Shown here in pieces: positions 724 through 12,368 of a DNA stretch of 36,531 nt. The notes under the pieces are model-generated. The model was not told where the DNA came from. It ran no database searches and was given only the letters and a program-made list of their open reading frames with translations. Within the stretch, counting starts at the first letter, position 1, and each line of letters starts with the position of its first letter. The stretch comes from a virus (lineage: Duplodnaviria > Caudoviricetes). The translations under genes were made by a program, and so were the position numbers. The stretch spans positions 1-36,531 of IMG/VR virus record IMGVR_UViG_3300005805_000226; one strand, written 5' to 3'.

Positions 724-757
724 TTGACACCTGAGACGAGGGGTGCTATGATAAATA
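724..757 (+). promoter_or_regulatory. Sigma70-type promoter of psbA with an overlapping late-like box
   Basis: TTGACA 724-729, 17-nt spacer, TG extension 744-745, TATGAT 747-752; GATAAATA 750-757. Confidence 0.8.
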
Positions 758-804
758 GGTAAACAAATGTTACGGAACTTAAACATTCCTTTAACATTGT
801 CTTT

Positions 805-903
805 CCTGCCGTTTGACCGAGACTAGGCAGGGTTACCAATCCGTCTCTCATATCCAGTCTTAGGGTGACTGGAGCATAGTATCTCCACCATTTCCCTGAT
901 GGT
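805..903 (+). ncRNA. Structured psbA 5' leader, probably PhotoRC-II-like
   Basis: Three hairpins: CCTGCC 805-810/GGCAGG 826-831, TCCAGTC 853-859/GACTGGA 867-873, ACCAT 887-891/ATGGT 899-903. The position upstream of phage psbA fits PhotoRC motifs; the family assignment was not tested. Confidence 0.6.
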
Positions 904-923: not shown

Positions 924-2928
924 ATGACTGCTACAATTTCACAACAAAAACAACTGAATAATTGGGAACAATTCTGCAACTGGGTAACTTCAACCGATAA
1001 TCGTCTTTATGTCGGTTGGTTTGGAGTTCTTATGATTCCTTGCCTGCTTGCTGCTACGACTTGTTTCATCATCGCCTTTATTGGCGCACCTCCCGTAGAC
1101 ATACTGCTTTAATCTGTGTCCTTCATCCGTAAGGGTGATGTTAAAACTGGGTGAATTGCTGGAAACCGAAAGGCAATCAGCAGCCAAGCCTTAGGTACAC
1201 CTAAGGAAGGTTCAGAGACTACCTGAGGAGTTGAGTCTCCTTAATAACAGGCTAGAGTGCCCAGCCCCTTTAATAACTTATAAAGGGTGAAGATATAGTC
1301 CAAATCTCACAGTTGACTTTTTCTTGCTAATGCTGTATAAATAATACAGAAGACGCAAGAGTAAAATGTTAAACTTAACTGAAACCGAAGTTGCTTGGAT
1401 TGCAGGAATTTTAGAAGGTGAAGGGTACTTTGGAATAGATAATCGTTCCAAAGACCGTTATGAAGTTTCTAATACTCCACCATCACCTTTTATTAAAGTT
1501 TCTATGGTAGATGAAGATATTATCCAAAGGTTGAGTAAACTTTTAGATAAATCTTATTTCTCACCATCAAGGAAAACTGTAAAAGATAAACAAGTTTATA
1601 CACTTCACATTGGAGAAAAAGAAAAGGTTCTATTCATTCTGCAAAAAATACTTCCCTATATGGGAGTAAGACGAAAAGAAAGAATAACCGAATGTATTTC
1701 TCATCTACAAACTTGGAAAGAGTGGGTAGAAAATGGTGGAAGAGTAGAAAACGCAAAACGAGCAAATCAAATCGGTCAACTGAAACGGTCTAAGTCGCAA
1801 GATATGACTGTCTTACTGGGATAAGAGACGGGATTCGTGAACCAGTTGCTGGTTCGCTTATGTATGGAAACAACATCATCTCTGGTGCTGTTGTTCCAAG
1901 TTCAAATGCTATAGGACTGCATCTGTACCCGATTTGGGAAGCTGCTTCCCTAGATGAGTGGCTCTACAACGGTGGTCCTTTCCAACTCGTTGTATTCCAC
2001 TTCCTCATCGGCATCTATTGCTATATGGGTCGTGAGTGGGAACTTTCCTACCGTCTTGGTATGCGTCCTTGGATTATGGTTGCTTACAGCGCACCTGTTG
2101 CTGCTGCTTCTGCTGTGTTCCTGGTCTATCCTTTTGGTCAGGGTTCCTTCTCTGATGCGATGCCTCTGGGTATCTCTGGTACTTTCAACTATATGCTTGT
2201 GTTCCAGGCAGAACATAACATCCTGATGCACCCCTTCCACATGCTGGGCGTCGCAGGAGTTTTCGGTGGTTCTCTGTTCAGTGCTATGCACGGTTCTCTA
2301 GTTACTTCCTCACTGGTTCGTGAAACCACTGAGAACGAGTCACAGAACTATGGTTACAAGTTCGGTCAAGAAGAAGAGACTTACAACATTGTTGCTGCTC
2401 ACGGTTATTTTGGACGCCTTATTTTCCAATATGCTTCGTTCAATAACTCACGTTCACTGCACTTCTTCCTTGCTGCTTGGCCTGTTGTCGGTATCTGGTT
2501 TACTGCCTTGGGCGTATCAACAATGGCGTTCAACCTCAACGGGTTCAACTTCAACCAGTCTATCCAGGATAGTCAGGGTCATGTGATTAACACTTGGGCT
2601 GATGTTCTGAACCGTGCTGGTCTGGGAATGGAGGTAATGCACGAGCGTTTTGTGAACGCATGGCGCTCGTTAAATCGGATGAATTGCTGGAACTCTCTTG
2701 TAGACAATCAGCAGCCAAGCCTTGCAAGCGTGTAAGGAAGGTTCAGAGACTAGGCGGTGGATGACGCTTCATCCGTAATACGCCACTAGCGTCCGACACC
2801 AGAAATGGTGATGATATAGTCCTTGCCCCTGGCGACAGTGGGATTTCAAGAATGCACACAACTTTCCTTTGGATTTAGCATCAGTTGAAGCAACACCAGT
2901 TGCCTTGACTGCTCCAACCATCGGATGA
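924..2928 (+). CDS. psbA: Photosystem II D1 protein; exons 924-1102, 1826-2648, 2851-2928 (359 aa)
   Basis: Joining the exons restores ...APPVDI-DGIREPV... and ...[16 protein letters not shown]..., 1080 nt in total. E130 (MGREWEL) is the high-light-type residue. A 15-aa extension follows A344. Confidence 0.98.
1336..1343 (+). promoter_or_regulatory. T4-type late promoter for the intron ORF
   Basis: Exact TATAAATA, 22 nt upstream of ATG 1366. Confidence 0.8.
1366..1824 (+). CDS. Intron-encoded single-motif LAGLIDADG homing endonuclease
   Basis: N-terminal helix motif [10 protein letters not shown], followed by [11 protein letters not shown] and VYTLHI...ILPYM, typical of the LAGLIDADG fold. 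Lies after S (P9 region). Stop TAA 1822-1824 abuts the terminal G. Confidence 0.88.
2649..2850 (+). mobile_element. Group I intron 2 of psbA (202 nt, no ORF, between R334 and N335)
   Basis: P1 ACGAGCGU 2641-2648/GCGCUCGU 2663-2670 with a U.G pair. P 2682-2692, Q 2706-2714, R 2741-2752, S ATGATATAGTCC 2811-2822. P3 TCGGAT 2675-2680/GTCCGA 2791-2796. Terminal G2850. Confidence 0.95.
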
Positions 2929-2994: not shown

Positions 2995-3423
2995 ATGACT
3001 AAACTATACTCCGAACTTTATAGAACTTGTATGACCTGCGGTAAAGAAAAACTTGCTACGGATTTTTACGTGAGGAATAAAGTGTCTATGGTTCGTCATT
3101 CTTCTTGTAAAGAGTGCGATAAGGTGAGAGTTAAAAAAAGACATCAAGATAATCCTGAACGCACAAGAAACAATGACCTAAAAAGGAATTATGGTATAAC
3201 ACTTCAAGAACATCAGCAAATGTTTGATGAACAAAAAGGAGTTTGTGCCATTTGTAAAGGTGAAGGTGATGGTAAATGGAAAAAACTTTGTGTAGACCAC
3301 GACCATAAAACTGGAAAGGTTCGTCAATTGCTTTGTAGAAATTGTAATATGGTATTAGGTCAGGTAGGAGACAACACAAATCTTCTGGAAGAAATGATTA
3401 AATACCTACAAAAGCACCAATAA
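2995..3423 (+). CDS. Free-standing Endo VII-family homing endonuclease (F-CphI-like)
   Basis: CxxC pairs and CAIC...LCVDHDHKTGKVRQLLCRNCNMVLG (Endo VII motif). Immediately downstream of psbA, as F-CphI is in S-PM2. Confidence 0.88.
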   Translation: MTKLYSELYRTCMTCGKEKLATDFYVRNKVSMVRHSSCKECDKVRVKKRHQDNPERTRNNDLKRNYGITLQEHQQMFDEQKGVCAICKGEGDGKWKKLCVDHDHKTGKVRQLLCRNCNMVLGQVGDNTNLLEEMIKYLQKHQ

Positions 3424-6655: not shown

Positions 6656-6898
6656 ATGGATAGAGAAAAACTTAAATTAATAGTTCAAAACCTTGAATCT
6701 CTGGTAGAATGTTTAAAGTCAGAGATTTATTCTGATATAGATTCGTATAAATTAAATTACGAAGAAGTGATGCCTTATATTAATGATTATGATGAAGTAT
6801 TTTATGATGGAGACGATGATGACTATGACGATGGTGTGATTAATCGTATAAATAAATCATACCAATTAATCAACGATGATGATGGAGACGGACTTTAA
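6656..6898 (+). CDS. Hypothetical acidic protein
   Basis: ATG 6656 lies downstream of the promoter; Asp-rich C-terminus. Confidence 0.75.
   Translation: MDREKLKLIVQNLESLVECLKSEIYSDIDSYKLNYEEVMPYINDYDEVFYDGDDDDYDDGVINRINKSYQLINDDDGDGL
6847..6854 (+). promoter_or_regulatory. T4-type late promoter
   Basis: TATAAATA 21 nt upstream of ATG 6876. Confidence 0.7.
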
Positions 6899-7382
6899 AG
6901 TACTTGATGAGTATCCTCACTATAAAATATATCAAGATGGAAAGATTTACTCTACTAAACTTAAAAAATATATTAATGGACATAAAAACAAGAGGGGATA
7001 TTATGCTTTTACTTTGTATAACTTAGAGGGAAAAAGAAAGCATAAAGGATTGCATCAACTTCTTGCTATGGCATTTATTCCAAATCCACACAACTATGAA
7101 ATAGTTCGACATTTAGATGACAATAAAGAAAATAACTCTTTATCCAATCTAAAGTGGGGAACAATAAAGGAAAACATAGAAGATGCTATTAGAAATAATG
7201 TTTTTAAAATGCCAGATAACTCTAGAAAATGGTTGGTCAAGATTCCTAGTGGTGATATAATAGAAGTAAGTAATCTTTCTACTTTTTGTTTGGACCACAA
7301 TTTATCAAAGCAAAATTTGCACAAGACATACAAAGGTGATAGAAATCACCACAAAAATTATCAATTATTGAGGATGTTATGA
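6876..7382 (+). CDS. Free-standing HNH homing endonuclease
   Basis: HQLLAMAFIPNP...VRHLDDNKENNSLSNLKWGTIKEN (I-HmuI-type HNH) plus a C-terminal DNA-binding-like module; AT-rich. Confidence 0.9.
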   Translation: MMMETDFKVLDEYPHYKIYQDGKIYSTKLKKYINGHKNKRGYYAFTLYNLEGKRKHKGLHQLLAMAFIPNPHNYEIVRHLDDNKENNSLSNLKWGTIKENIEDAIRNNVFKMPDNSRKWLVKIPSGDIIEVSNLSTFCLDHNLSKQNLHKTYKGDRNHHKNYQLLRML

Positions 7383-8096: not shown

Positions 8097-8711
8097 ATGG
8101 GAAGAAAATCTAGTTTATCTGTTGGAGATAAAATAGGCGCTTTTACTATATTGGAAGTACTACCAACAAAATCAGGAAACCACTCTAAAGCAATAATATT
8201 GTGTGACTTTTGTGGAAAACAGAAAAAGATGTCATCACAAAATATTAAAAATAAAAATTCTTGTGGTTGCCAACAAAGAAACTCTAGTGGATGGAAAAAT
8301 AATAGTGGAGCATATAATAAAACGTGGCAGTTACCTTTAGGCGAGGCGGCTAAAAACAATCTTTACTATCAATATAAAAAATGTGCAGAAAAAAGAAAGT
8401 ATGCATTTGATTTGACAAAAGAAGAATTTTGTCAAATAGCAATCAAACCTTGTCATTATTGTGGCAGTAAATGTCAAAGTGTAATAAAGGGGCAAGGAAA
8501 AACTAGTGGTAATTTTTATTATACTGGTGTTGATAGATGGAATAATTTTATTGGATATAATAGACAAAATTGTGTTCCTTGCTGTAAAATATGCAATAGT
8601 ATGAAAAATACTTTAAGTGAAGAAGAGTTTGTTTCTCATATTAAACAGATATTATCTTACTTAGGCAGATGTGCTGAGTGTGTTGATGCACCTTCTATCA
8701 CTATTGAATAA
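8097..8711 (+). CDS. Free-standing HNH-type endonuclease (Zn-binding)
   Basis: CDFC, SCGC, PCHYCG, GVDRWNNFIGYNRQNCVPCCKICNSMK. Confidence 0.85.
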   Translation: MGRKSSLSVGDKIGAFTILEVLPTKSGNHSKAIILCDFCGKQKKMSSQNIKNKNSCGCQQRNSSGWKNNSGAYNKTWQLPLGEAAKNNLYYQYKKCAEKRKYAFDLTKEEFCQIAIKPCHYCGSKCQSVIKGQGKTSGNFYYTGVDRWNNFIGYNRQNCVPCCKICNSMKNTLSEEEFVSHIKQILSYLGRCAECVDAPSITIE

Positions 8712-11711: not shown

Positions 11712-12368
11712 ATGACCGTAATTTATGAATTTGTTAATAATATAAATCAAAAAGTTTATGTTGGACAGGCAGTTGATTATAAACAAAGAATAAGAAATCA
11801 TAAATTTAATTTAAAGAAAGATAAAAATACTCCTTTTTATAACGCTTTAAAAAAATATGGATGGGAAAATTTTTCAATTAATATTATTGAGGAATGTGAA
11901 GCAAACGAATTAAATGAAAGAGAAGTTTATTGGATTAATGAAAAAAAATCTTTGTATCCAAATGGTTACAATCTTTTAGAAGGTGGAAAACAAGCAAGAC
12001 ATAATGATATTACAAAACAAAAAATATCAAATGGTAGGAAGGGAATTAAATTTAGTGAAAGTCATATTGAAAATTTAAGAAAGTCTCATCTTGGATATAT
12101 AATGCCAGAAGAGCAAAAAAAGAAAATATCCAAATCAAATAAAGGAAAAGTTGTTTCTGAAGAAACAAAAAGGAAACTTAAATACAAACAACCACACAGA
12201 AAAGAAGTTGGTAGATTTAATAAAGAAGGTAATTTGATTATGAAATATGAAAGCATAATGGATGCCTCAATTGTCTTAAATTGTTCTCCAGGAAATATAT
12301 CAGAGTGTTGTAATGGAAAAAGAAAAATGAATAAAATTTTAAAGGGAGATATTTTAAAATTTTTATGA
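11712..12368 (+). CDS. Free-standing GIY-YIG homing endonuclease (Seg-like)
   Basis: VIY...VYVGQ...R..H, E.YWI, GYN; NUMOD3-like repeats (TKQKIS, EQKKKISKS, SEETKRKL) and a NUMOD1-like C-terminus. Confidence 0.93.
   Translation: MTVIYEFVNNINQKVYVGQAVDYKQRIRNHKFNLKKDKNTPFYNALKKYGWENFSINIIEECEANELNEREVYWINEKKSLYPNGYNLLEGGKQARHNDITKQKISNGRKGIKFSESHIENLRKSHLGYIMPEEQKKKISKSNKGKVVSEETKRKLKYKQPHRKEVGRFNKEGNLIMKYESIMDASIVLNCSPGNISECCNGKRKMNKILKGDILKFL

Follow-up and report, generated by a model that had tools for sequence, protein, structure and literature searches.

A group IA1 intron with a LAGLIDADG endonuclease gene at nucleotide 179 of a cyanophage psbA gene, a likely homing element akin to psbA introns of green-algal chloroplasts

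The psbA gene of a T4-like cyanophage is interrupted after nucleotide 179 by a group IA1 intron with an intact open reading frame (ORF) for a protein of predicted I-CreI fold. The intron likely spreads by homing between cyanophages; it and the psbA-179 intron of green-algal chloroplasts are likely a single mobile element, a reading to which we assign a probability of about 0.8. Judged by its sequence and that of its relatives, it is a real homing intron and is probably active. In the proposed cycle, the intron RNA would splice itself out, after which D1 can be made. The start of the ORF would be held in a hairpin in the psbA transcript, and a late promoter within that hairpin would yield a short transcript without the 5' arm, from which the enzyme would be made late in infection. 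The protein would dimerise via its LAGLIDADG helices and cut the near-palindromic Pro57-Ile63 stretch of intronless psbA genes in co-infecting phages. Repair would then copy the intron with a few flanking exon bases, and the intron, by splitting the site, would protect its own allele. The ORF cassette may disappear, be exchanged among ribozyme variants, or relocate to a slot behind psbA and, after plastids arose, the element may have crossed between cyanophages and green-algal plastids.

The window, that is, the whole stretch of 36,531 nt that was analysed, is a fragment of a T4-like cyanophage genome (17 % complete) with genes for speD, thymidylate synthase, phoH, gp59, gp32, and baseplate and tail proteins. 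A plastid-DNA assembly chimera was ruled out, as T4-like cyanophage genes flank psbA and the arrangement is repeated in 28 other viral contigs. The psbA locus is composed as follows.

724 to 752, plus strand: sigma-70-like promoter before psbA, called on consensus match only (11 of 12 positions).
792 to 887, plus strand: PhotoRC-II RNA motif in the psbA leader (Rfam RF01717, 61.2 bits).
924 to 1102, plus strand: psbA exon 1, nt 1-179, terminating within the Ile60 codon.
1103 to 1825, plus strand: group IA1 intron of 723 nt at psbA nt 179 (RF00028, 79.7 bits); D1 is restored on its removal and the junction is conserved in relatives.
1826 to 2648, plus strand: psbA exon 2, reaching codon 334.
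2649 to 2850, plus strand: second group I intron, ORF-less, 202 nt, after nt 1002, the S-PM2 site (RF00028, 71.4 bits).
2851 to 2928, plus strand: psbA exon 3.
2995 to 3423, plus strand: free-standing EndoVII-type (F-CphI-like) endonuclease gene (Pfam PF02945, 93 bits) with its own late-promoter motif at 2964.

Excision of 1103-1825 and 2649-2850 restores a stop-free D1 of 359 aa. The two Rfam group I matches in the window lie at 1093-1323 and 2609-2842; the former, with an E value of 7e-19 and a score well above the gathering score of 50, spans all 253 model positions. The ORF-less intron at codon 334 and the EndoVII gene downstream of it in the same locus were absent from the preliminary description of this DNA. 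Four free-standing endonuclease genes are present in the window, at 2995-3423 (EndoVII), 6876-7382 (HNH), 8097-8711 (EndoVII/HNH-like), and 11712-12368 (GIY-YIG-like). They adjoin psbA, thymidylate synthase, and gp59/gp32, and two of the four have a late-promoter motif.

Because psbA begins at 924, position 1102 is nt 179 of the gene. The insertion splits the Ile60 codon (AT-A), adjoining that of Asp61; T is the last base of the exon and G (1825) that of the intron. The preliminary description had placed a group I core and splice sites within Ile60, beside Asp61, and the Rfam score and the restored D1 bear this out; its intron coordinates, 1103-1825, were exact. Within the intron, the following elements were distinguished.

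1113 to 1120, plus strand: internal guide, of which 1116-1120 pairs with exon positions 1098-1102 (P1) and 1113-1115 with exon positions 1826-1828 (P10).
1124 to 1300, plus strand: ribozyme core with P2, P3 (1147-1152/1259-1264), P4-P6, P7 (1217-1221/1296-1300), P7.1 (1222-1225/1248-1251) enclosing P7.1a (1226-1230/1237-1241), and P8, from the Rfam alignment, with helices read from the sequence and some coordinates set by hand.
1321 to 1361, plus strand: ORF leader with a T4-type late-promoter motif (1336-1343) in a hairpin (fold -13.5 kcal/mol, z -3.5).
1366 to 1824, plus strand: single-motif LAGLIDADG endonuclease ORF of 152 aa in loop L9.1.
1775 to 1825, plus strand: 3' structure overlapping the ORF end, with the 3' strand of P9.1 (1310-1317 with 1775-1782), P9.2 (1786-1790/1806-1810), P9.0 (1304-1309/1817-1822), and the terminal G, drawn from comparison with ORF-less introns.

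P1 has a U-G pair at the cut. The guide was found by motif and the P1 pairing is, hence, partly by construction; P10 covaries. Of 86 distinct introns at site 179, 79 showed full P10 pairing (3/3), and the exon triplet concerned took three forms, in 67, 9, and 3 cases. This covariation backs the splice sites and, as pairing is kept with each triplet, the Ile60 wobble base changes in step with the guide. Introns of subgroup IA1 are defined by extra P7.1/P7.1a stems between P7 and P3, and both stems are found here within 1222-1251. The intact 152-aa single-motif ORF that the preliminary description had located in the P9 region could be assigned more precisely, from comparison with ORF-less copies, to the loop of P9.1; most of the short ORF-less copies checked have a GNRA-capped P9.1 hairpin instead. 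The last ~16 codons of the ORF overlap P9.1, P9.2, and P9.0, and its stop codon lies directly 5' of the terminal G. Three relatives (L112, L114, and L120) are ORF-deletion derivatives in which a long P9.1 stem is kept, in one case with a promoter remnant.

The assignment of the ORF product to the LAGLIDADG family failed the curated Pfam cut-offs (PF14528, LAGLIDADG_3, 20.9 versus 22.5 bits; PF00961, 18.4 versus 23.1 bits) and held at the level of predicted fold; the sub-threshold scores are taken as a limit of the profiles because the fold matches. An AlphaFold model built from a 39-sequence alignment (pLDDT 89.6) matched I-CvuI (E 1.2e-6), I-CreI, and I-MsoI in Foldseek with E values of about 1e-6. 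In VIA, variants of I-CreI were found with Z 12.4 (rmsd 4.9, 125 residues aligned) and Z 12.2 (rmsd 2.5, 107 aligned); the best 22 rows were LAGLIDADG-fold proteins throughout, the first unrelated row having Z 4.7. A profile of the ORF matched I-MsoI at E 5.6e-8. Model and profile together predict a LAGLIDADG fold with a motif helix that ends in an acidic residue. The HNH identity implied by a PHROG label (phrog_5046) was ruled out by the fold search. Glu19, at the position of the catalytic acid, is invariant in all 39 aligned homologs and in 17 of 17 plastid-type ORFs; Asp49, Pro97, Arg102, and Arg103 are likewise invariant across the 39. A two-copy model scored 0.77 and the best of three controls 0.01. 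Of solved pairs, 20 of 30 attain the mark of the model, as does 1 of 23 single chains, and the score may reflect memory of solved LAGLIDADG dimers. Contact agreement between runs was 100 %, pLDDT was at least 82, and the predicted interface is formed by the motif helices (residues 6-19). Among 30 distinct copies of the ORF, dN/dS was below 1 in all 353 pairs with usable dS (median 0.17); the ORF is under purifying selection. The protein thus described resembles I-CreI, I-MsoI, and I-CvuI in fold, single motif, size, and predicted helix-to-helix dimer. It differs from them in sequence (9-21 % identity), in its EGEG motif and Met47, and in its predicted target, psbA, whereas the three known enzymes target rRNA genes.

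The leader hairpin closes 4 nt 5' of the ORF start codon. The late-promoter motif is present in 29 of 33 leaders of relatives, and the hairpin persists with changed letters. A late promoter within a hairpin at the start codon resembles the control of the intron endonucleases of T4. A sigma-70 promoter overlapping the late promoter, seen by eye with a 17-nt spacing, was dropped when the promoter scanner did not report one.

Close viral homologs of the ORF lie in a codon-60 intron in 28 of 29 cases (21 with both junctions seen), and the remaining one is free-standing. A junction scan gave 45 viral loci with a site-179 intron, 26 with the LAGLIDADG ORF, 16 without an ORF, and 3 with other ORFs; site 179 therefore does not depend on the LAGLIDADG enzyme. 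The intron is rare: the 45 viral stretches compare with about 3,900 intronless ones, an estimated occupancy of ~1 % from counts made with different patterns, so that homing falls well short of saturation. In a psbA exon tree of 112 rows (codons 75-330; 68 intronless and 43 intron-bearing rows, one of which duplicates the window, and 1 plastid root) intron presence changes 24 times, at least 11 of these changes being forced by strong branches. A flank signature, CCC-GTA before the site and GGG (Gly62) after it, marks 45 of the 58 distinct phage alleles with the intron and 1 of 120 without it, counts that come from related sequences and are hence not independent. Its simplest reading would be homing with short co-conversion, in which case the enzyme would accept varied wobble bases; RNA pairing between both exon flanks could add to the signature. 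The sole intronless allele with these flanks, L348, has ATA as codon 60 and perhaps represents precise intron loss. Around the centre of Asp59-Ile60, the joined site forms a near-palindrome, with 7 of 10 pairs in the window and 8 of 10 in 38 of the 58 phage alleles, and would therefore suit a homodimer. The window intron is itself a mosaic, its core (92 %) and 3' tail (97 %) being like those of L110 and L122 and its leader (92 %) and ORF (94 %) like those of L083. Predicted fold, purifying selection, patchy distribution, and co-conversion-like flanks thus all lend support to the earlier proposal that the intron is self-mobile.

The free-standing copy, at 1826-3480 of L022 (89 % identity over 131 aa), follows a divergent psbA that has no intron and whose site is changed (P57G, P66M). 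The D1 of L022 retains all Mn ligands and has G80A, F158L, and T286A, which we take to be marks of the low-oxygen D1' form. A second free-standing phage homolog (44 %), at 125-607 of L031, has a late promoter and an L022-like C-terminal tail; its contig starts 3' of psbA. With P0061 and the L031 protein as queries, the search for more free-standing copies yielded nothing beyond distant matches and L022 and L031 themselves, and the element was absent from the cultured phage records searched. Four site-179 phage introns (L096, L121, L154, and L102) have unrelated ORFs of ~200 aa that are GIY-YIG-like or HNH-like by eye. A paralogous single-motif LAGLIDADG family (35-39 %) was seen in phage psbA introns at nt 548 (L026, L032-L040, and L202). 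Over L001-L253, phage psbA introns were mapped to nt 179, 230, 276, 317, 408, 499, 548, 645, 649, 890, 1002, 1008, and 1011; only high-scoring sites are quoted, as automatic mapping is unreliable where introns crowd.

Alternatively, the ORF product could act as a maturase that assists splicing, or as a nuclease of reduced activity, and the intron could spread by other nucleases or plain recombination. Met47, which replaces the Gln that is presumably usual at this position, as in I-CreI, would fit this reading, and copies without the ORF are no less scattered than those with it. LAGLIDADG maturases do exist, an example being that of the Thermotoga 23S intron, according to the overview in PMC3984707. 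The persistence of ORF-less copies, however, implies that no maturase is needed, and neither the catalytic Glu19 nor the two basic Arg residues vary. The free-standing gene of L022 stands beside an intronless psbA with an altered site, as would be expected of a nuclease that avoids its own genome, and a late promoter in the hairpin suits a nuclease as well. We consider a maturase or weakened nuclease very unlikely and retain the reading of the ORF as a homing enzyme.

Sequences from metatranscriptomes are consistent with excision. Contigs of relatives with intron and ORF were present in 8 of 8 runs, where DNA carry-over is possible. Joined exons were found at the site in 2 of 8 runs, the next base being C, and may come either from spliced mRNA of the more common variant or from alleles that lack the intron. 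A joint of the intron 3' end to its 5' end was found in 1 of 8 runs (X4; one contig, depth 24). It implies 56 unread letters; for a full-length circle, 56-57 would be expected from 22 of the 25 introns of this variant. A neighbouring second intron was ruled out as a source of the joint, since 56 letters cannot accommodate the 51-nt exon up to site 230. The X4 sequence is suggestive of an excised intron circle, i.e. of excision in nature.

The element might also be kept because it benefits the phage, either as a light-dependent switch of D1 splicing or as a means of attacking co-infecting phages or host psbA. Light-dependent splicing has been reported for the psbA intron of S-PM2, as summarised in PMC5931967. 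Three cyanobacterial psbA sites, obtained as the comparable site of three of four plasmid-borne psbA genes and not including that of the real host, show 3-4 differences from the joined site over the central 20 positions; most intronless phage alleles show more (median 5 over the central 20). If phage alleles are cut, host psbA copies can probably be cut too; that the phage enzyme does cut host psbA is a guess. The occupancy of ~1 %, the frequent loss of the ORF, and the many optional introns in psbA fit selfish cycling instead, and a benefit to the phage has, in our estimate, only a small probability.

Among 120 of ~170 stretches from a scan of metagenomes, many psbA genes of green-algal-plastid type with an intron at the same base were found, the contigs being assigned to plastids by D1 sequence type (N-terminus and short C-terminal extension). 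At least 26 distinct plastid-type site-179 introns have both junctions, and at least 21 carry a LAGLIDADG ORF. The window ORF is 27-50 % identical to 17 plastid-type ORFs (six at 45-50 %), which have a median identity of 36 % to one another. Most plastid-type introns match the 5' domain of the window intron with 81-89 % identity over ~80 nt, and a P9.2 motif is common to phage and plastid site-179 introns. ARAGORN detected a tRNA in 1 of the 17 plastid-type loci. Two introns of this kind have been published, Oc.psbA.1 of Oedogonium cardiacum (site 179, subgroup IA1, a single-LAGLIDADG ORF of 184 codons in L9; Table 4 of PMC2442088) and psbA-179 of Ulva (695 bp, single LAGLIDADG; Table 2 of PMC10151680). 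These tabulated introns and the homologous plastid-type contigs confirm the statement of the preliminary description that nt 179 is also an intron site in green-algal chloroplast psbA. The window intron shares with them the gene, the base, the subgroup (Oc.psbA.1), the loop, and the type of ORF, and is of similar length (723 nt versus 695 bp in Ulva); sequence identity was measured to the plastid-type contigs, the Oedogonium and Ulva introns being compared by description. It is unlike the algal introns in its T4-like phage host, in the late promoter and hairpin of its ORF, and in having ORF-less, free-standing, and other-ORF states among its relatives. By sequence comparison, phage and plastid site-179 elements can firmly be called homologous, and in this form the suggested link between phage and plastid intron pools is supported. 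Sites 179, 276, 408, 548, and 645 are common to phage psbA and the Oedogonium plastid, as judged from the tabulation in PMC2442088, in which the site-548 intron has an HNH ORF, in contrast to the LAGLIDADG family of phages.

Whether this kinship reflects exchange after the origin of plastids was assessed with trees. In an 82-row ORF tree, site-179 ORFs group with support of 92/93 and neither direction is favoured. In a 54-row ORF tree, phages nest within plastid-type ORFs (97/92), along with the site-548 paralogs; plastid monophyly was not rejected (p-AU 0.24). In a tree of the ribozyme core, site-179 phage and plastid introns group (99/99) with plastids nested in phages, the group also taking in two plastid 276 and two phage 230 rows; this tree has 59 rows and 161 columns, 51 rows having been dropped for want of a motif match, and its outgroup is non-monophyletic and contains no plastid introns from other genes. 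ORF and ribozyme trees thus disagree on the direction of exchange. Among 185,579 species genomes no cyanobacterial match was found in a scan run without a positive control. Its four matches were two unrelated genes and two plastid-type contigs in non-cyanobacterial bins; the latter (L247 and L250) carry plastid-type psbA in bins of non-photosynthetic bacteria and are probably contamination.

The kinship could also stem from descent of an old cyanobacterial intron, or from independent capture at a favoured site, with no exchange after plastids arose; this bears on the crossing step only. No vector between cyanophages and algae is known, the trees are short and in disagreement, and the phage and plastid ribozyme cores form separable groups. 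The absence from cyanobacteria is moreover weak evidence, since psbA is multi-copy and often missing from assemblies. That absence nevertheless counts to some extent against old descent, as do the identity of ~50 % between some phage and plastid ORFs, which exceeds the median between plastid ORFs, and the shared site, subgroup, loop, and P9.2 motif. Old descent or independent capture is, in our view, unlikely, and these comparisons make phage-plastid exchange after the origin of plastids likely.

The intron-borne LAGLIDADG enzyme stands out against the known phage intron enzymes, which are mostly of the GIY-YIG, HNH, PD-(D/E)xK, and EDxHD types in the survey of PMC3984707. In S-PM2, the psbA intron and the free-standing F-CphI are described as a case of collaborative homing (PMC6083498; PMC5931967). 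The window resembles S-PM2 in having a group I intron in cyanophage psbA and also contains a codon-334 intron with an EndoVII gene; the intron described here differs in its site (nt 179 versus 1002), in having the enzyme within the intron, and in the enzyme type (LAGLIDADG, not EndoVII). Collaborative homing of the F-CphI type was not found for site 179: the ORF is intronic, and no ORF-less site-179 intron together with a free-standing copy occurred among the loci examined. Endonuclease-bearing psbA introns have been reported for cyanophages S-CBWM1 and S-SRM01 (PMC8557907), which are alike in having a cyanophage psbA intron with its own endonuclease ORF. S-CBWM1 was ruled out as an earlier report of site 179, its introns mapping to about nt 649 and 1011; S-SRM01 is intronless at 179 and the ORF of its psbA intron has no match to the window ORF. 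LAGLIDADG genes themselves are common in phages (149 records), where they are free-standing or in inteins according to PMC10448857. With such introns already published at other sites of cyanophage psbA, and with phage LAGLIDADG genes this common, the preliminary description had overstated the novelty of the element. The homing mechanism is ordinary and the plastid twin is already published. Metagenomic psbA introns at more than one site are reportedly listed by Millard 2010, and site 179 may be among them. No description of a LAGLIDADG intron at site 179 of a phage was found in the literature, Zeng 2009 and Xu 2018 being known by citation.

The new aspects are the occurrence in a phage under phage-type control, the joint presence of states in which the ORF is missing, free-standing, or swapped, and the exchange that is implied between cyanophages and plastids of algae. 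A more far-reaching reading, which we consider unlikely, is that cyanophages are the workshop and reservoir in which the psbA-179 ribozyme and the LAGLIDADG gene were joined before crossing into green-algal chloroplasts, perhaps with the site-276 intron too, and that the late enzyme also cuts host psbA and leaves phage D1 as the sole template. On this reading, the joining took place in T4-like cyanophages, in which composite introns, introns without an ORF, and free-standing genes 3' of psbA still occur together and exchange cassettes.

In conclusion, psbA introns of cyanophages and of green-algal plastids, which have been studied separately, are joined in one family. The enzyme would be a new small meganuclease against a stretch of psbA that is fixed at the protein level across phages, cyanobacteria, and plastids. 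With ORF-less, free-standing, and composite states side by side, the gain of endonucleases by introns may be testable on one small element, and the family suggests that genes pass between viruses of bacteria and organelles of eukaryotes by a route for which no vector is known.
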